From: an uncultured bacterium
GTDB lineage: Bacteria > Krumholzibacteriota > Krumholzibacteriia > LZORAL124-64-63
Assembly (NCBI GenBank): GCA_963727525.1
Contig: CAVSGO010000005.1
Coordinates: 480,001-544,000, forward strand
Length of the DNA: 64,000 bases
Direction: 5' to 3'
This document shows, one piece after another, positions 35,418 to 42,212 of this stretch (positions are counted from its first letter, which is position 1; every line of letters starts with the position of its first letter). Under the pieces are notes generated by a model. It saw only the letters and a list, made by a program, of their open reading frames with translations, was not told where the DNA came from and made no database searches. The position numbers and the translations under genes were made by a program.

Positions 35418-35590
35418 CGCTGACTCCCTTGGACACGCTCCGGCTGTCTCCGCCCGTAGATTCGGCGCAATGCGTAGAATGGGGAGAAACGACGTCCAGC
35501 GCAACCCTCGACTGGACCTCCCCGGGGCGGTTTTGGTACATTGGCATCAACTGCCACGACCCCCGTGGATGCGTCGGGAGGACGCGAACC

Positions 35591-37054
35591 ATGCCCACCG
35601 TGCGTCCCGCTGTCCTTGCCGGCACCTGGTACCCCGCCCAGCCGGGGCCACTGCGCAATCACGTCGCCTCGTACCTCGCCATGAGTGAACGCAGCGACCA
35701 GCCGCAGGGCAAGCCCAGGATCGCCGTGGTCCCGCACGCCGGCTACCGGCACAGCGGACCCACCGCCGGCAAGCTCTACGGCCTGCTCGCCGGATTTGCC
35801 TACGACGCGGTATTCATCCTCGCGCCGAGCCATCGCGCGCGTCTGCGGCGCGCCGCGCTGTCGAGCATGACAGCGTATGCCACGCCGCTCGGCGAGGTGC
35901 CCGTGGCCGTGGATATCGTGCAGACGCTGGCGGCCACGCCGTACTTCGACATCGACGACGGCGCCCACGCGATGGAGCACGCGGTGGAAATCCAGCTGCC
36001 GCTGCTGCAGTGCGCGCTGCCGGCCGGCACGCCGATCGTCCCCATCCTCGTCCCCCATCTCGACCGCGCGTCGCGGCTGCACACTGCCGGCACCCTCGAC
36101 CCCTGGCGGGATGCCCGGCATCTGTTCCTCATCTCGAGCGATTTCACCCACTATGGCGACGAGTACGGCTTCGTGCCGTTCACGGATGACGTACCGCAGC
36201 GGATCGAACAGCTCGACACGGGGGCGATCCTGAAGATCCTGGCTCACGACAGCGACGGGCTCATCGAGTACGGCTCGGCCACCGGCATCACGATGTGCGG
36301 CCTCGACGCCGCGGCCGTCGTGCTGCTGGGCGCGCCGCCGGCCGGCTACGAGGCCGCGCTCCTCGGCTACGCGCGAAGCGCCGACGACGATCCCGGCGCG
36401 ACGATGTCCGTGAGCTACGCCGCCATCGTACTCTGCGCCGACGACGACGCCGTCGCCCCTGGCGCCACGCCGGGGCCGGCCGCATTCACACCGCCGGAAC
36501 GCGCGTTCCTGCTCGACCTGGCGCGGGCGGCCGTCACCGCGGCGGCGCGCGGGCACACCGCCCCATCGGCCGCGAGTTTCGCCGCGATGCGCGGCATCGC
36601 CCTCGGGACCGCGCTCCAGGCACGGCGGGGCGTTTTCGTCACGCTCAACGACCGCGGCGGGCACCTGAGAGGCTGCATCGGCACGATCGAGGGCGAGCTT
36701 CCAGTGGTCGATGCGGTGGTCGACAGCGCCACCGGCGCCGCCCTGGCCGACCCACGATTCGTCCCGCTGCGCGAGTCCGAGCTTGACGGGACCACGATCG
36801 AGGTTTCCATACTGACTCCCACGCGGGCGGTGCCCGGCCCGCAGGCGATCGAGATCGGCCGGCACGGGATCGTGCTGCGCAAGGGAAGGCGCAAGGCCGT
36901 GTTCCTACCTCATGTCGCGCCGCAGCAGGGCTGGGACCTCGCGACGACTCTCGACCATCTGGCCATCAAGGCGGGCCTGGCGGCCGACGGTTGGCGCAAC
37001 GGAAGCGAATTCCACGTTTTCGAGGCCGAAATCCTCGGCGAGGAGCGGGATTGA
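35591..37054 (+). CDS. AmmeMemoRadiSam protein B (MEMO1) - protein A (AMMECR1) fusion
   Basis: VRP...AG.WYP, PHAGY..SG, EH..E.QLP.LQ, SSDFTHYG, TMCG; then GVFVTL, LRGCIG, DPRF, EVSIL, FLP.V, KAG. Confidence 0.9.
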   Translation: MPTVRPAVLAGTWYPAQPGPLRNHVASYLAMSERSDQPQGKPRIAVVPHAGYRHSGPTAGKLYGLLAGFAYDAVFILAPSHRARLRRAALSSMTAYATPLGEVPVAVDIVQTLAATPYFDIDDGAHAMEHAVEIQLPLLQCALPAGTPIVPILVPHLDRASRLHTAGTLDPWRDARHLFLISSDFTHYGDEYGFVPFTDDVPQRIEQLDTGAILKILAHDSDGLIEYGSATGITMCGLDAAAVVLLGAPPAGYEAALLGYARSADDDPGATMSVSYAAIVLCADDDAVAPGATPGPAAFTPPERAFLLDLARAAVTAAARGHTAPSAASFAAMRGIALGTALQARRGVFVTLNDRGGHLRGCIGTIEGELPVVDAVVDSATGAALADPRFVPLRESELDGTTIEVSILTPTRAVPGPQAIEIGRHGIVLRKGRRKAVFLPHVAPQQGWDLATTLDHLAIKAGLAADGWRNGSEFHVFEAEILGEERD

Positions 37055-37177
37055 ATGCCGGCACGTGAAAATCGTTTGTTCGCGGAGGGCTGTGGGGCTA
37101 TTTTGGGCGGTCGGCAAGATGCCGCCGCGAACGTCCCCGATCCCCCGCTACCTAGCCCGAACCCGGTGACGGAGAGC

Positions 37178-38356
37178 ATGGGCCTTCTGGACAAGTGCCG
37201 GAAATTCCGGACCGCCCGCGACCTGATGGACGCAGGGCTCTACAATTACTTTCGCACCATCGAATCGGCCCAGGAGAACACGGTCCGGTATAAAGGTCAC
37301 GAAGTCATCATGCTGGGCAGCAACAACTACCTGGGGTTGACCAATCATCCCAAGGTGAAGGAAGCGGCCCAGCTGGCCATCGCCAAGTACGGCACGGGTT
37401 GCGCGGGTTCACGTTTCCTCAACGGCACGCTCGACATCCACGTGGAGCTCGAGCAGAAGCTCGCCGCCCTCGTGGGCAAGGAGCGCGCCCAGCTCTTCTC
37501 CACGGGATTCTTCGCGAACCTGGGCACCATCTCCACCATCGTGGGCCGCAACGACGTGGCCATCGTCGACCGCACCGACCATGCCTCCATCATCGACGGC
37601 ACCCGCATGAGTTTCGGCCGCGTGGCGAAGTACAAGCACCAGGACATGGAGAGCCTGGAGTACCTGCTGCAGCGCGAGCGGGAGACGGACAAGCTGGTCA
37701 TCGTCGACGGCGTGTTCTCCATGGAGGGCGACATCGCGCGCCTGCCGGACATCGTCGCGCTGTCCAAGCAGTACGGCGCGCAGACCATGGTGGACGATGC
37801 GCACGGCCTTGGTGTGCTCGGTGACCATGGGCGCGGCACCTGCAACCATTTCGGGCTCACCGACGACGTCGACATCATCGTCGGAACCTTCAGCAAGAGC
37901 CTGGCCTCCGTGGGTGGCTTCGTGGCGGCCGACGCCGACACGATCCACTACATCCAGCACCTCGCCCGTGTGCTCATCTTCTCGGCCAGCCCGCCGCCCG
38001 CGTCGGTGGCCTCGGTCTCGGCCGCCATCGACGTGATGCTCGAGGAAGACTGGCGACACGAGGCCCTGTGGCGCAACACGCACATCATGCTGGAGCGGCT
38101 GCGCGGCGCCGGCTTCGATACCGGCCCCAGCGAGACGCCGGTGATCCCCGCCGTCGTCGGCGACGACCAGATCGCCTTCAAGATGTGCGTGCGCTGTTTC
38201 GATGAGGGCGTGTTCATCAACCCGGTGGTGTCGCCCGCCGTGGAACCGGGGCATGCGCTGATCCGGCTCAGCCTCATGGCCACTCACACCGAGGACGAGA
38301 TCCACAAGGCCATGGACATCATGACGAAGGTGGGCAAGGACCTCGGGGTGGTCTGA
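37178..38356 (+). CDS. spt: Serine palmitoyltransferase (alpha-oxoamine synthase family)
   Basis: GSNNYLGLT.HP, YGTGCAGSRFLNGTLD.H, DHASI, DGVFSMEGD, DDAHG, GTFSKSL, IFSAS. Resembles Bacteroides-type Spt; neighbours support it. Confidence 0.8.
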   Translation: MGLLDKCRKFRTARDLMDAGLYNYFRTIESAQENTVRYKGHEVIMLGSNNYLGLTNHPKVKEAAQLAIAKYGTGCAGSRFLNGTLDIHVELEQKLAALVGKERAQLFSTGFFANLGTISTIVGRNDVAIVDRTDHASIIDGTRMSFGRVAKYKHQDMESLEYLLQRERETDKLVIVDGVFSMEGDIARLPDIVALSKQYGAQTMVDDAHGLGVLGDHGRGTCNHFGLTDDVDIIVGTFSKSLASVGGFVAADADTIHYIQHLARVLIFSASPPPASVASVSAAIDVMLEEDWRHEALWRNTHIMLERLRGAGFDTGPSETPVIPAVVGDDQIAFKMCVRCFDEGVFINPVVSPAVEPGHALIRLSLMATHTEDEIHKAMDIMTKVGKDLGVV

Positions 38357-38383
38357 ACGCCGCCCCACCGCCCGTACGACCTC

Positions 38384-38421
38384 CGACCCCCGGTCCCCGA
38401 TCGGGGGTCGCGTCTTTGTTT
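38384..38421 (+). terminator. Intrinsic terminator-like hairpin after spt
   Basis: CGACCCCCG/CGGGGGTCG stem followed by CGTCTTTGTTT. Confidence 0.6.
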
Positions 38422-38511
38422 CTCCGACCCCGGCAGTTGACGATTGTCCCGTGACGCGGTAAGTCTTTGTCCTGCACCACACGCCCGTCGTCCACGAACC
38501 AGGGAGCCGTC

Positions 38512-39642
38512 ATGCCCATCGCTATTGAGCCCGTGCGCAGCAAGGCCGATCTCGACGCGTTCCTGCGCGTCCCCTACACGGTGTACGGGATCGACCATCC
38601 GCAGTACGTCTATCCGCTGCTCGGGCACATGAAGCAGTTCCTCGATCCGCAGAAGAATCCGTTCTTCCGCCATGCGGAGACCGAGAAGTGGATCGCGCGG
38701 GACGAAGGCGGCAAGGTGGTAGGTCGCATCGCGGCGGCCGTCGACCACACGAGCAACCAGTACCACGATGAGCTGGTGGGATTCTTCGGCTTCTACGAGT
38801 GCACGGACGACCTTGCCGTGGCGCACGCCCTGCTGGGTACCGCCCGGCGCTGGATCGCCGATCACGAACTGGCGACCATGCGGGGCCCGGGCTGCTTCAC
38901 CACCAATCACGACTACCTCGGCCTGCTCGTGCAGGGCTACGACGAGCGGCCGCTCATCGGCATGCCATGGCAGCCGCCCTACTACCAGCAGCATTTCGAG
39001 GATTTCGGCTTGCAGAAATCCAAGGATCTTTGGGCCTGGGACATCCACCCCGCCGACAACGTCATCCCCGAGCGCATCGTGCGCTTCTCCGAGCGCATCA
39101 AGGCGCGGCAGACGTTCACCATCCGTCGCTTCCGCATGAAGAAGTTCTGGGAGGACGTGGAGACGGTGCGCGAGATCTACTCGGCCGCCTGGGCCGACAA
39201 CTGGGGTTTCGTACCCATGGACGAGGTGGAGTTCCGGTACGCCGCCAAGGACATGAAGAGCATGGTCGACCCGGGCTTCCTCCTCATCGCCGAGATCGGC
39301 GACGAACCCATCGGTTTCTGCATGACCACCCAAGACTTCCACGAGGCCATGTACCCGCTGAAAGGTCGACTGCTGCCGTTCGGATGGTTGAAATTCCTGC
39401 TCGCTAAGGGCAAGATCAAGCGGGCGCGCACATTGCTGCTGGGGGTCAAGCCGGAACACCGGTCGAGGGGAGTCGACGTGCTCCTGGTCTACGAGACGAT
39501 GAAGTACGGCATCGGGCGCGGCATCAACCGCAGCCAGTGCTCGTGGATCCTCGAGGACAATGTCGGCATGAACCGCATCCTCGAGAACTACGGCGCCACC
39601 GTATCCAACGTGTATCGTATCTACGAAATGCCGGCCCCATGA
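38512..39642 (+). CDS. Tandem-GNAT acyltransferase, bacterial ceramide synthase-like (bCerS/YghO family)
   Basis: NPFF.HA, VGRIAA, GFFGFYE, RGP, P.YY...FE..G..K..D, AW..NWGFVP, G.L.PFGW.K, LGV..EHR.RG, SWILEDN..M, YRIYE. Confidence 0.8.
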   Translation: MPIAIEPVRSKADLDAFLRVPYTVYGIDHPQYVYPLLGHMKQFLDPQKNPFFRHAETEKWIARDEGGKVVGRIAAAVDHTSNQYHDELVGFFGFYECTDDLAVAHALLGTARRWIADHELATMRGPGCFTTNHDYLGLLVQGYDERPLIGMPWQPPYYQQHFEDFGLQKSKDLWAWDIHPADNVIPERIVRFSERIKARQTFTIRRFRMKKFWEDVETVREIYSAAWADNWGFVPMDEVEFRYAAKDMKSMVDPGFLLIAEIGDEPIGFCMTTQDFHEAMYPLKGRLLPFGWLKFLLAKGKIKRARTLLLGVKPEHRSRGVDVLLVYETMKYGIGRGINRSQCSWILEDNVGMNRILENYGATVSNVYRIYEMPAP

Positions 39643-40688
39643 GCGCGGGCGGGACGCGCTCTCCCACGCCCGAAGCCGGTGGGATGATCGCCGTCACCGG
39701 CGCCACCGGGTTCCTCGGCAGCCATATCTGCGACATCCTGATGCAGCGCGGCTATCGCATCCGCGCGGCCGCGCGCGCCACGAGCGACCTGCGCTGGCTG
39801 CGCGGCAAGCCGATCGAGGTGGCGACGGTGGACCTCGCGGACAGCGCCCGCGTGCGCGCGTTCGTGACAGCCTGCGATGCCGTCGTGCACTGCGCCGGCC
39901 GCGTGTCCGGGTCCGGCGAGGACGACTACCAGCAAGCCAACGTCGTGCCCACGCGGACTCTGCTGGAAGCGGCGTCGCTCGAACGCGCGCCGGGCTGCTT
40001 CGTCTACGTCTCGTCGCTGGCCGCGCACGGTCCGGCGGGGCCGCAGGCGCCGGCGACCGAGGACGGTCCGCTGCAGCCCGTCTCGGCCTACGGCCGGAGC
40101 AAGCGCGACGCCGAATCCCTCGTGCACGGGCGCCCCTGGCCGTTTCGCGTGGTGACGCTGCGGCCGCCGTCCCTCTACGGCCCGCGCGACCGTGAATTCC
40201 TGCCGCTCTTCAAGGCCGCCAGCCGCGGCTGGACGGCGACCCTGGGCAACTTGCAGGCCATCTCCCTCGTGGACGGACGCGACGCGGCGAGCGCTGCCGT
40301 GTCGCTGATGGAGACACCGGATACGCACGGCGCCTACTTCGTCGACGACGGCGTCGACGAGGACGGCAAGGAGGCGGCACGCCGGCGCCTGGCCTGGGGC
40401 TACACCTGGGACGAGATCCACTACGCCCTGGCCGTGGTCTGGCGACGACGCGTGCGCGAGCTGACTCTGCCCATGCCGCTGCTGCGCGCTGCGGCGGTCG
40501 TGATGCCCTCGCGCTGGCGTCGGTCGGCCGCCCTGCTGAGCGACGACCGGCTGCGGGATCTCGGCGCCCAGGGCTGGGTGTGCAGTGCGGCCCGGCTGCG
40601 CCGCGAGACCGCCTGGCGCCCCCGCCACGACCTGGTCGCTGGATTCCAGGACACGCGCGATTTCTTCGAGCGCAACGGATGGTTGTGA
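39639..40688 (+). CDS. NAD-dependent epimerase/dehydratase (extended SDR), ceramide/ketosphingoid reductase-like
   Basis: VTGATGFLG, VVHCAG, YVSSLAA.GP, YGRSK, RPPSLYGPRD; ATGA overlap with the preceding gene. Confidence 0.75.
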   Translation: MSAGGTRSPTPEAGGMIAVTGATGFLGSHICDILMQRGYRIRAAARATSDLRWLRGKPIEVATVDLADSARVRAFVTACDAVVHCAGRVSGSGEDDYQQANVVPTRTLLEAASLERAPGCFVYVSSLAAHGPAGPQAPATEDGPLQPVSAYGRSKRDAESLVHGRPWPFRVVTLRPPSLYGPRDREFLPLFKAASRGWTATLGNLQAISLVDGRDAASAAVSLMETPDTHGAYFVDDGVDEDGKEAARRRLAWGYTWDEIHYALAVVWRRRVRELTLPMPLLRAAAVVMPSRWRRSAALLSDDRLRDLGAQGWVCSAARLRRETAWRPRHDLVAGFQDTRDFFERNGWL

Positions 40689-41617
40689 TGCGCGGAGCCC
40701 TGGCGGCGCAGCAGCCCTGGCGGCGCGCGGTCGACCGCTGGGCCGTGGTCTACGTCCTGGTGACGGGGCTGCTACCGCTCCTGGATCCGGCGGTGTTCAG
40801 CGAGGTCCCCACCGGCCCCCCTCTGGGCCTCGGCCCGCACATCGCCCTGCATCTCGGGCTCGCCGCCTTGCTCTGGGTGCTCCCTCCCTGGCTGCGCAGT
40901 CGCGAGTCGTTCGCGCCGCGCTTGCTGGCCGAGATCACCGTACCGCTGCTCTTTCCGCTCTTCTATAGCGAGCTGGCCTACCTCGGCCAGATCTACTTCA
41001 ACGTGAACGCGAGCTTCGACCCCTGGCTCATCGACATCGAACAATCGATCTTCGGGGGCCAGCCCAGCCTGCTCTGGTCCGAGCGCATGCCGTGGCCCTG
41101 GCTGCACGAGTACTTCGAGTTCGCGTACTTCAGCTACTACCTCTTCGCCGCCGGCGCGCTCTTCATGATCTGGCGCCTGGGCGACGCCACGCGCGACGAA
41201 CGCTGGCGGCACACGACCGGCATGGTGCGCGACCTCGTGGCCGTCATGCTCACGTGCTATGCGTGGTACATCGTGTTGCCGGTGTGGGGGCCGAAGTACT
41301 TCGCGAAGATCGGCGTTGCCGGCCCGGTGGAGGTAGGCGGCGGCATCTTCACGAGGATCATGCACTATATCCACGCCCACGGCGCCCTGCACGGCGCGGC
41401 GTTCCCCAGCTCGCACGTGGCGGGCTCGATGGTACCTTGGTGGTGGACGTGGCGGCTCTTCCCACGGCAGCGCTGGTGGACAACCGCCCTCTGGCTCTCG
41501 CTCTGCGCGTCCATCATCTACTGCCGCTATCACTATGGCGTGGATCTGATCGGTGGGGTGCTCTGGGGGGCCCTCGTCATCGGAGCGTCGCGGCGTTTTC
41601 GGGACTTTTCCAGTTGA
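40688..41617 (+). CDS. PAP2-superfamily membrane phosphotransferase, Aur1/IPC-synthase-like
   Basis: Multi-TM; E.F.FAYFSYY, Y...PV.GP, AAFPSSHV, RYHYGVD. Confidence 0.75.
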   Translation: MRGALAAQQPWRRAVDRWAVVYVLVTGLLPLLDPAVFSEVPTGPPLGLGPHIALHLGLAALLWVLPPWLRSRESFAPRLLAEITVPLLFPLFYSELAYLGQIYFNVNASFDPWLIDIEQSIFGGQPSLLWSERMPWPWLHEYFEFAYFSYYLFAAGALFMIWRLGDATRDERWRHTTGMVRDLVAVMLTCYAWYIVLPVWGPKYFAKIGVAGPVEVGGGIFTRIMHYIHAHGALHGAAFPSSHVAGSMVPWWWTWRLFPRQRWWTTALWLSLCASIIYCRYHYGVDLIGGVLWGALVIGASRRFRDFSS

Positions 41618-41710
41618 ATTTGTCTATCGATTAGCTACAATGGTGCCGGTGCCCGGCTGGGTTTCTCCCTCCAATCCCCCGACTTGGTCGGGCACCACCC
41701 GACAGTTCTC

Positions 41711-41752
41711 GCGCGTCAGGCGGCCCTCCGGGCCGCCTTCGTGCTACGCGCC
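41711..41752 (-). promoter_or_regulatory. Candidate SECIS element for TGA 41753-41755
   Basis: After UGA: G-GCGCGU-AGCACGA-AGGCGGCCC-GGA-GGGCCGCCU-G-ACGCGC (6-bp lower stem, 9-bp upper stem, G-first loop 23 nt from UGA). Confidence 0.6.
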
Positions 41753-41941
41753 TCAGCTGAAGCCGCTACCGCAAGACGGCCCACCTTCGCCGCCGCCGGT
41801 GGCGAAGGTCGACAGGGCGCGCTCCACGTCGTGCGACGCGCACTGCGGGCACTGGGCCTCGCCGGCCTCCATCTCCGCGAATGTGAGGATGTCCTCGAAC
41901 GACGTGCCGCACGCGCGGCAGCTGAATTCGAAGATCGGCAT
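41744..41941 (-). CDS. FmdB-family zinc-ribbon protein, probable selenoprotein ending CGSGFS-U-GA
   Basis: AGGAGG SD; MPIFEFSCRACG..FE....CPQCAS..VER.LSTF; TGA at 41753 followed by GGC GCG TAG. Ends at 41753 if TGA is a true stop. Confidence 0.8.
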
Positions 41942-41973
41942 GAATCCTGTCCTCCTGCTGTCGAACTCCCGGA

Positions 41974-42123
41974 TCACTGTCCGGACTTGGTTTCTTTCGG
42001 TTTCTTGTGCGGGTCTCCGACCTCGCAGACGTCCGCCGCTCAGCCCGGGCGGAAACCGAGCCGCGGCAGGATCACGTTGACCACCACGAGGTAGGCCACG
42101 ATGAAGATGATCAGCTTGATCAC
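41974..42123 (-). CDS. Small single-TM protein with in-frame TGA, candidate selenoprotein (49 aa)
   Basis: GAGGAG SD then GTG; MIKLIIFIVAYLVVVNVILPRLGFRPG-U(TGA 42040-42042)-AADVCEVGDPHKKPKETKSGQ*; GC3-rich codons before the TGA. Confidence 0.6.
42008..42039 (-). promoter_or_regulatory. Candidate SECIS element for TGA 42040-42042
   Basis: After UGA: 12 nt, then UGCG-A-GGUC-GGA-GACC-CGCA; loop 21 nt from UGA with the same C-GGA-G apex as the other element. Confidence 0.55.
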
Positions 42124-42154
42124 GGTCCGGCTCCTCTTCGATCGTCCATCTACA

Positions 42155-42180
42155 GTCAACTATCTGCAAATCTAGTTAAC
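42155..42180. promoter_or_regulatory. Imperfect inverted repeat, putative operator
   Basis: GTCAACTA-N10-TAGTTAAC (7/8 match) between the putative -10 and the GTG start. Confidence 0.4.
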
Positions 42181-42184
42181 CCTT

Positions 42185-42212
42185 AATTTATCGGTTTTAG
42201 CCGCCCTGTCAA
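42185..42212 (-). promoter_or_regulatory. Putative sigma-70 promoter for the two small genes
   Basis: TTGACA-N16-TAAATT on the minus strand within an AT-rich patch. Confidence 0.5.

Follow-up and report, generated by a model that had tools for sequence, protein, structure and literature searches.

The locus described here lies in a stretch of 64,000 nucleotides (the window; positions 480,001 to 544,000 of the forward strand of contig CAVSGO010000005.1, assembly GCA_963727525.1) from an uncultured bacterium of the phylum Krumholzibacteriota. It consists of two small open reading frames (ORFs) on the minus strand, ORF-A and ORF-B, each with a Shine-Dalgarno sequence, an in-frame TGA and, behind this TGA, a hairpin that resembles a bacterial selenocysteine insertion sequence (SECIS). 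The initial annotation of this DNA had reported both ORFs behind one TTGACA-N16-TAAATT promoter, with the apices of the hairpins 21 nucleotides (nt) and 23 nt past the TGA, and all of these elements are present, the two distances having been measured again with the same values. The promoter-like site matches the consensus at 10 of 12 positions, and the 900-nt region that contains it holds two such sites against 0.2 expected from shuffled sequences; the other one (TTGAAT-16-TACAAT, 41614-41641, plus strand, 9/12) is located at the 3' end of a gene of the PAP2 family and is antisense toward the operon. A plain list of ORFs gives at this locus nothing more than a TTG-started ORF of 138 residues (41753-42169), the mis-started frame that had already been pointed out, and an ORF of 39 residues (42040-42159). 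The analysis that follows makes it highly probable that the locus is an operon of two genes for small selenoproteins, both of them truncated by ordinary gene calling (Table 1).

Table 1. Features of the two-gene locus, in window coordinates and in the order of reading
Feature	Position	Strand	Description
Putative sigma-70-like promoter	42185..42212	-	TTGACA (42212-42207), 16-nt spacer, TAAATT (42190-42185); consensus match only
Shine-Dalgarno sequence of ORF-A, GAGGAG	42131..42136	-	read off the sequence; 7 nt 5' of the GTG start
ORF-A, candidate 49-residue single-pass membrane selenoprotein	41974..42123	-	hydrophobic helix, PRLGFRPG-U-AADV-C, charged tail
Candidate selenocysteine codon (TGA) of ORF-A	42040..42042	-	in-frame TGA kept in homologs; Cys in other phyla
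SECIS-like hairpin of ORF-A	42009..42026	-	GCG(A)GGUC / GGA loop (42018-42016) / GACC CGC; loop begins 21 nt past the TGA
Shine-Dalgarno sequence of ORF-B, AGGAGG	41951..41956	-	read off the sequence; 9 nt 5' of the ATG start
ORF-B, candidate 65-residue FmdB-family zinc-ribbon selenoprotein	41744..41941	-	CxxC-x19-CxxC, Gly-rich linker, C-GSGFS-U-GA, TAG stop
Candidate selenocysteine codon (TGA) of ORF-B	41753..41755	-	followed by GGC GCG TAG
SECIS-like hairpin of ORF-B	41718..41738	-	AGGCGGCCC / GGA loop (41729-41727) / GGGCCGCCU; 9-bp stem, loop 23 nt past the TGA, no T-run

ORF-A starts with the GTG at 42123 and reads VIKLIIFIVAYLVVVNVILPRLGFRPG-TGA(42042-42040)-AADVCEVGDPHKKPKETKSGQ-TGA, its true stop being the TGA at 41976-41974, while ORF-B starts with the ATG at 41941 and reads MPIFEFSCRACG...CPQC...PSCGSGFS-TGA(41755-41753)-Gly-Ala-TAG. 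The mechanism that we favour is one in which the first in-frame UGA of each gene would be decoded as selenocysteine (Sec, U) by means of a canonical bacterial SECIS hairpin located about 20 nt downstream. The hairpin of ORF-A would lie inside the coding sequence, where it would impose the residues S-[IV]-G-D-R, and the hairpin of ORF-B would lie in the 3' untranslated region, past two more codons and the real stop. In the published model of the bacterial SECIS, the element is found at about 16-37 nt from the UGA. Both hairpins fit the SECIS form, with a G in a small apical loop and a spacing within that range.

Evidently, decoding of this kind depends on the machinery for Sec, and the genome (4.66 Mb, 96.7% complete) contains all the genes for which a search had been proposed: a tRNA-Sec (70.4 bits against a cut-off of 47, and called SeC with anticodon tca by ARAGORN), selA (462 bits), selB (302 bits) and selD (365 bits). 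Of the 208 species genomes of the phylum, 200 have selA, among them all of the 125 of high quality. The selD gene itself carries one in-frame TGA (...KSAG-U-AAKLAPGD; contig C8:225636-226547, minus strand) and thus offers a SECIS of the same genome for comparison, as had been suggested; its hairpin, CCAGG-GGA-CCUGG, has its loop 20 nt past the UGA, and both the GGA loop and the similar spacing are common to this hairpin and to the two candidates. The alpha subunit of formate dehydrogenase (TIGR01553) has no match in the genome at E up to 1e-20 and, therefore, the Sec trait must be maintained by other selenoproteins; ORF-A and ORF-B may be part of what sustains it.

The distribution of ORF-A was established in two steps, a homolog search that covered 41 relatives and then a profile search of the whole phylum (208 genomes). 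The former returned homologs with one in-frame TGA located directly 5' of an FmdB gene, and the latter found ORF-A in 143 of the 208 genomes, with the in-frame TGA in all among the matches listed. Counted by family, it occurs in 86 of 90 genomes of f1, 39 of 43 of f3, 5 of 8 of f7, 7 of 13 of f9, the single genome of f8, 3 of 10 of f6 and 1 of 12 of f5, and in none of the 7 genomes of f2 or the 23 of f4. The architecture consists of an N-terminus of 2-4 residues, one hydrophobic helix and a charged tail. In the 20 orthologs that were extracted, the frame remains open past the TGA for 15-38 codons in every case, despite divergent tails; the motif LPRLG..P[G/T]-U-x4-C-S-[I/V]-G-D-R is kept, and P20, G23, U28, C33, G36 and D37 are invariant.

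Outside the phylum, a cysteine takes the place of Sec. A collection of 5.8 billion proteins gave 348 matches to ORF-A at E up to 0.01, and in the 36 of them that were retrieved the Sec position is occupied by Cys (25, within LPRLGVPT-C-MSGxC), Trp (5), Gly (1) or Ser (1), or the protein ends exactly there (4). A scan of one genome per species added 47 Cys-type loci, which occur in assemblies of Acidobacteriota, Planctomycetota, Nitrospirota, Omnitrophota, Myxococcales and Leptospira. The question raised by the initial annotation, whether homologs have TGA or Cys at this position, is therefore answered with both, and never with TAA or TAG. The entries with Trp are P0004, P0006, P0009, P0011 and P0021, that with Gly is P0002 (nearly identical to the Sec-type peptides of genomes G026 and G031) and that with Ser is P0057; these residues may be genuine replacements, or they may have arisen where genes were called with a genetic code in which TGA stands for Trp or Gly. 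ORF-A and 10 of its Cys-type homologs have no match among the models of Pfam and NCBIfam, and a protein atlas queried with a Cys-type homolog returned only clusters of "hypothetical protein", with scores below 0.9. The conserved TGA, the open frame behind it and the Cys homologs indicate that ORF-A is almost certainly a selenoprotein gene.

The hairpin of ORF-A takes in the orthologs the form CUCGAUC-GGN-GAUCGGG, with a stem of 7 base pairs (bp). Among 36 distinct orthologs, 90.5% of the cells of the stem are paired, against 24-56% in controls in which the stem was slid along the alignment. One pair covaries, being AU in 21 orthologs and GC in 12 (Ile AUC with Asp GAU, and Val GUC with Asp GAC), and the covariation of the stem was reached by none of 500 shuffles. 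The Cys-type homologs retain C-x4-C and lose the conservation of S-I-G-D-R, a motif that coincides with the hairpin, and therefore it is the RNA hairpin that sets those residues. The SECIS of ORF-A thus appears to dictate part of the protein, S-[IV]-G-D-R, and the gene would be a clear case of a SECIS hairpin that fixes the amino-acid sequence of its host protein.

ORF-B is a member of the FmdB family of zinc ribbons (TIGR02605, 57.6 bits against a cut-off of 31.3; PF09723, 47.9 bits against 34.4, E 1.3e-12). The four cysteines of the ribbon (C8, C11, C31 and C34) are ordinary Cys in all 19 orthologs, and Sec would be position 63 of 65, at the end of a tail that in related genomes has the form C-G-x-G-G-F-[S/T/G]. 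All of the 120 best database matches end in ...GF[T/S/A/G] and are named "FmdB family..." or "zinc ribbon domain-containing protein", and these homologs appear to be annotated in truncated form. The contrary view is that they are complete: ORF-B would end with ...GFS at an ordinary TGA, the hairpin behind it would be a terminator or a stem that stabilises the mRNA, and ORF-A would be the only selenoprotein of the locus.

The stop codons bear directly on this matter. They were examined in the 38 genomes in which both genes were located, and the background was taken from the open frames of at least 250 codons in the source genome, which end with TGA in 60% of cases, TAG in 32% and TAA in 8%. An ordinary TGA at the end of ORF-B is what one would expect from the commonest stop of the genome. 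The first stop of ORF-B, however, is TGA in 38 of 38 genomes, while the second is mixed (TGA in 18, TAG in 17 and TAA in 3). This second in-frame stop comes after one codon in 25 genomes, two in 10, three in one and four in two, that is, within 1-4 codons in every genome, as compared with 5.8% in the background. The residue that follows U is Gly in 27 genomes, with all four Gly codons in use, and Ala in 8; the Ala-Ser extension is spelt GCC-AGC, GCA-TCC, GCG-TCC or GCC-TCG. Since Gly and Ala-Ser are kept through differing codons, in synonymous and non-adjacent changes, selection appears to act on the extension as protein and not as DNA, and the codon-varied Ala-Ser would be hard to explain unless the extension is translated.

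The hairpin of ORF-B is also conserved, and it lies where a terminator would be expected, at the end of the operon and facing a convergent gene. Its stem is paired in 83% of the cells (slid controls, 33-52%), compensatory changes affect 7 of its 8 pairs, and none of 500 shuffles reached the observed covariation. The loop begins with G and is located 16-24 nt past the TGA in 35 of the 38 orthologs, which is a SECIS spacing; the row of the source genome (G000) was misaligned by MAFFT, and its distance of 23 nt was measured by hand. A T-run, as a terminator would have, follows the hairpin in 3 of the 38 and is absent from the other 35, and in G013 a separate terminator with a T-run is found 3' of the SECIS-like stem. 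As a control for chance, 4303 TGA stops of open frames of at least 250 codons in the source genome were searched for an uninterrupted stem with a 3-5-nt loop that starts with G[G/T] and lies 16-24 nt downstream; a stem of at least 5 bp was found after 2.5% of them and one of at least 7 bp after 0.5%, which makes the 9-bp hairpin of ORF-B a rare one. In genome G002 (L046/L108), the FmdB gene lacks the G-F-T-U tail, its frame remaining open for several hundred codons more; the assembly is fragmented, and a frameshift or a faulty assembly is the probable cause.

The same features can be followed through the FmdB family at large. Starting from an alignment of database FmdB proteins only, 80 metagenomic loci were fetched, 75 of them distinct and usable. 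The pattern of a stop, 1-4 codons and another stop is found in 28 of 51 genes that end with TGA and in 1 of 24 that end with TAA or TAG (Fisher p = 1e-5), and a SECIS-like hairpin follows 27 of those 28 TGA genes, as against 9 of the 47 other loci (p = 2e-11). The short extension and the hairpin accompany TGA, then, and not TAA or TAG, which is not what an ordinary stop with a terminator behind it would lead one to expect. The 28 include further Sec-type tails, such as ...SCGPS-U-GH, whose close relatives have ...SCGTCRH or ...HCSTCGHH before an ordinary stop and lack the hairpin; these tails would constitute a Sec/Cys pair inside the FmdB family. ORF-A is found upstream in 5 of the metagenomic loci. 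When 11 metagenomic FmdB proteins were compared with the selenoprotein-specific models of NCBIfam (E up to 1e-4), none of them gave a match. Many Cys-type FmdB proteins (L155, L159, L224 and others) have ends rich in Cys and His (...CCNGCCHHHH, ...SCxxCxH), which look like metal-binding tails.

Taken together, these observations make it quite improbable that ORF-B ends at its first TGA, and ORF-B is very probably a selenoprotein gene. The comparison of its homologs, which the initial annotation had proposed, came out in part as anticipated, with TGA in all 38 genomes and a 3' hairpin that covaries; a Cys form of the tail itself did not appear among the database, genome and metagenomic sequences examined. 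As for both UGA codons being read as Sec, the claim is backed by the Sec machinery, the conservation of TGA and the covarying hairpins. Three observations had been named beforehand as arguments against it, and in each case the opposite was found: the machinery is present, no TAA or TAG occupies the aligned position, and both conservation and a hairpin are found 3' of the TGA.

That neither UGA is recoded is hardly credible: ORF-A would then be a peptide of 27 residues followed by a regulatory RNA hairpin, for example an attenuator of ORF-B, and this would account for the conservation of S-I-G-D-R as a property of the RNA stem rather than of the protein, and for the truncated ORF-A peptides of 26-30 residues deposited by gene callers, but it leaves aside that the Cys located five residues past the TGA, which is 5' of the stem, is invariant in 20 of 20 orthologs, that the C/U-x4-C spacing is kept in the 25 Cys-type homologs without the hairpin motif, that the frame stays open in the face of divergent tails, and that the TGA is so constant in organisms with full Sec machinery. 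A precursor of a ribosomally synthesised and post-translationally modified peptide, or of a selenobacteriocin, was also considered and rejected, given that there is no match to TIGR04081 and no adjoining maturation enzyme, and that the gene is single-copy and conserved across the phylum.

Having discussed the decoding, it is possible to consider what the two proteins may do. ORF-A is predicted to be a single-pass membrane peptide whose charged C-terminal side would be cytoplasmic according to the positive-inside rule, so that its U-x4-C pair would be placed at the cytoplasmic face of the membrane. ORF-B, in which no signal sequence was found, would be a cytosolic zinc ribbon with a flexible, glycine-rich tail that ends in a Cys/Sec pair (C-x5/6-U). 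ORF-B is located 0-68 nt downstream of ORF-A in all 38 genomes with both genes located, and the family-level distributions of the two agree. The "co-regulated redox/metal module" of the initial annotation is plausible in view of the Sec/Cys pairs and the operon structure. As to its activity, the most likely proposal, tentative as it is, holds that the two chalcogen pairs serve to bind an ion of a soft metal or metalloid and to hand it on, with two ligands contributed by each protein. A hint of metals may be seen in the tails rich in Cys and His of the Cys-type FmdB proteins (e.g., CCNGCCHHHH) and in the several Sec-type forms of the metagenomic sample that end in U-G-H.

A number of observations weigh against the reading of the locus given here, both in its decoding and in the partnership of its two products. 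The related genomes are not independent of one another, and raw probabilities overstate the case. In the source genome the motif of ORF-A is C-E-V-G-D-P and not C-S-I-G-D-R, and its hairpin (4 bp, a bulge and 3 bp) is weaker than in the relatives. Protein conservation past the UGA is weaker for ORF-B than for ORF-A, given that only 1-4 residues follow, and the conserved 3' hairpin could be a terminator or a stabiliser. A Cys in place of U in the G-F-[ST]-U tail, whose absence favours an ordinary end for ORF-B, was found neither in the 120 best database matches, nor in the 10 FmdB genes taken from 5 genomes with a Cys-type ORF-A, nor in the 75 metagenomic FmdB loci; for ORF-B, the Sec/Cys pair is seen only in sister subfamilies of FmdB tails. 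The partnership of ORF-A and ORF-B is based only on adjacency and shared distribution. A motif search found an FmdB gene within about 1 kb of a Cys-type ORF-A in 0 of the 47 loci, and in the case of 7 metagenomic FmdB genes with a G-F-S-U-type tail, ORF-A is absent from the 330 nt upstream; outside the phylum, therefore, the partnership is not an obligate one. Finally, the neighbours of Cys-type ORF-A genes (rhodanese, TauE, a fusion of a coenzyme A (CoA)-disulfide-reductase-like protein with rhodanese, thioredoxin) suggest sulfur or thiol redox chemistry as much as metals.

This last point leads to a second proposal for the function, which is possible and which we hold with less confidence: both proteins would be selenoproteins, and their pairs would form a thiol/selenol redox relay rather than a site for metals. 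In such a relay, U-x4-C in ORF-A and C-x5-U in ORF-B would alternate between the selenol/thiol form and a selenenylsulfide or diselenide, perhaps transferring reducing equivalents, sulfane sulfur or selenium at the membrane. According to a review, redox proteins account for most of the bacterial selenoproteins in which Sec and Cys form paired motifs (PMC13188914), and 4 of 14 Cys-type ORF-A loci lie among genes of sulfur and thiol redox, namely a rhodanese/metallo-beta-lactamase fusion with TauE, a CoA-disulfide-reductase-like protein with rhodanese (twice) and thioredoxins. On the other hand, neither ORF-A nor ORF-B has a thioredoxin fold or a CxxC/UxxC redox motif, and their spacings of x4 and x5-6 fall on unstructured segments; the Cys/His-rich manner of the Cys-type FmdB tails is that of metal-binding tails; and no reductase or oxidase gene is conserved beside the operon among the related loci examined. 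The neighbours are instead a short-chain dehydrogenase upstream (11 of 28 loci), a convergent PAP2-family gene downstream (26 of 38) and metG (4 of 38). A functional link to metG was rejected, as it is adjacent in only those 4 loci. Other functions, including the independent action of ORF-A and ORF-B, are less likely still.

Each of the two proteins recalls known systems. Thioredoxin reductase has a C-terminal Gly-Cys-Sec-Gly tail, and it has been expressed in E. coli with the SECIS placed after UGA-GGU-stop. It shares with ORF-B the flexible tail with a Cys/Sec pair, the U-G-stop arrangement and a SECIS that acts from untranslated sequence; thioredoxin reductase, however, is a large flavoenzyme in which Cys and Sec are direct neighbours, while in ORF-B the two are 5-6 residues apart in a zinc-ribbon protein of 65 residues for which no catalytic partner is known. 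The delivery of metals from membrane Cys pairs to soluble partners is known from the FeoB-associated Cys-rich membrane protein, and from MerT together with the C-terminal Cys pair of MerA. ORF-A resembles them in its very short N-terminus, its single helix and its Cys/Sec pair adjoining the membrane, and the hand-off to a flexible tail with a Cys pair is the same idea; unlike them, it has a motif of its own, LPRLGVPT-[C/U]-MSGxC, which no Pfam or NCBIfam model matches.

Selenoproteins of the FmdB family are not new in themselves. In the Global Ocean Sampling data, a 2008 study predicted two selenoproteins for an FmdB-family putative regulatory protein, with Sec inside the CxxC (PMC2398784), and reviews list the family as CxxU or UxxU (PMC9312934, PMC13188914). 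These proteins have in common with ORF-B the TIGR02605/PF09723 zinc ribbon and a Sec that replaces Cys; they differ in that their Sec is located within the CxxC knuckle of the ribbon, whereas the ribbon of ORF-B is all Cys, its Sec is the third-last residue, in a glycine-rich tail, and its SECIS lies in the 3' untranslated region. The UXX-star and KCU-star families (NF041114, NF041211, NF033934) have Sec 1-3 residues from the C-terminus and a SECIS behind the true stop, and for the UXX-star proteins Sec has been suggested as a possible metal ligand (PMC13188914). ORF-B shares the near-terminal Sec and the position of the SECIS with them and has no sequence relationship to them, its N-terminus being an FmdB zinc ribbon.

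The model searches are in line with this. NF041114, NF041211, NF041197 (dual-CXXC), NF045695 (TsoA) and TIGR04081 (selenobacteriocin) have no match in ORF-A, ORF-B or their orthologs at E up to 1, nor does NF033934 in ORF-B or its relatives at the same limit. The 2026 table of 119 prokaryotic selenoprotein families contains neither an FmdB protein with C-terminal Sec nor a small membrane protein with U-x4-C (PMC13188914), and full-text searches of the literature, supplements aside, yielded no description of the form of ORF-A or of ORF-B. Several literature matches to "FmdB" refer to subunit B of formylmethanofuran dehydrogenase, an unrelated protein. What is proposed here would thus be new selenoprotein families, or a new position of Sec in a known family, and not a new mechanism.

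If the proposal is correct, two families would be added to the known selenoproteins, neither of which is found in Pfam, in NCBIfam release 20 or among the 119 families of the 2026 inventory. ORF-A would be among the smallest selenoproteins proposed, and anchored in the membrane besides; two selenoprotein genes would share one operon, ORF-A being conserved in roughly two of every three genomes of the phylum. Annotation pipelines would be truncating the homologs of ORF-B and mostly missing ORF-A. The presence of Sec in the tail of a protein of the widespread FmdB family points to a reactive site there, and this makes the tail a target for mutagenesis and for metal and redox assays. A broader and more doubtful proposal is that a C-terminal Sec is a general, overlooked feature of the FmdB family, which in this phylum would be accompanied by a dedicated membrane selenoprotein of 49 residues, the two forming a joint site of two Sec and two Cys at the cytoplasmic face of the membrane, which would bind a metal or a cluster or serve as a diselenide relay. 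In that event, a large share of the entries named "FmdB family zinc ribbon protein" would be selenoproteins short by 1-4 residues, and the position of Sec would identify the tail as the site of function throughout the family.

The operon is convergent with a set of four consecutive genes on the plus strand (37055-41617), which encode a class I/II aminotransferase, a GNAT acetyltransferase, an NAD-dependent epimerase/reductase and a protein of the PAP2_3 family. Ahead of these, also on the plus strand (35429-37054), is the gene of a protein of 541 residues in which a Memo-like domain is fused to an AMMECR1 domain.

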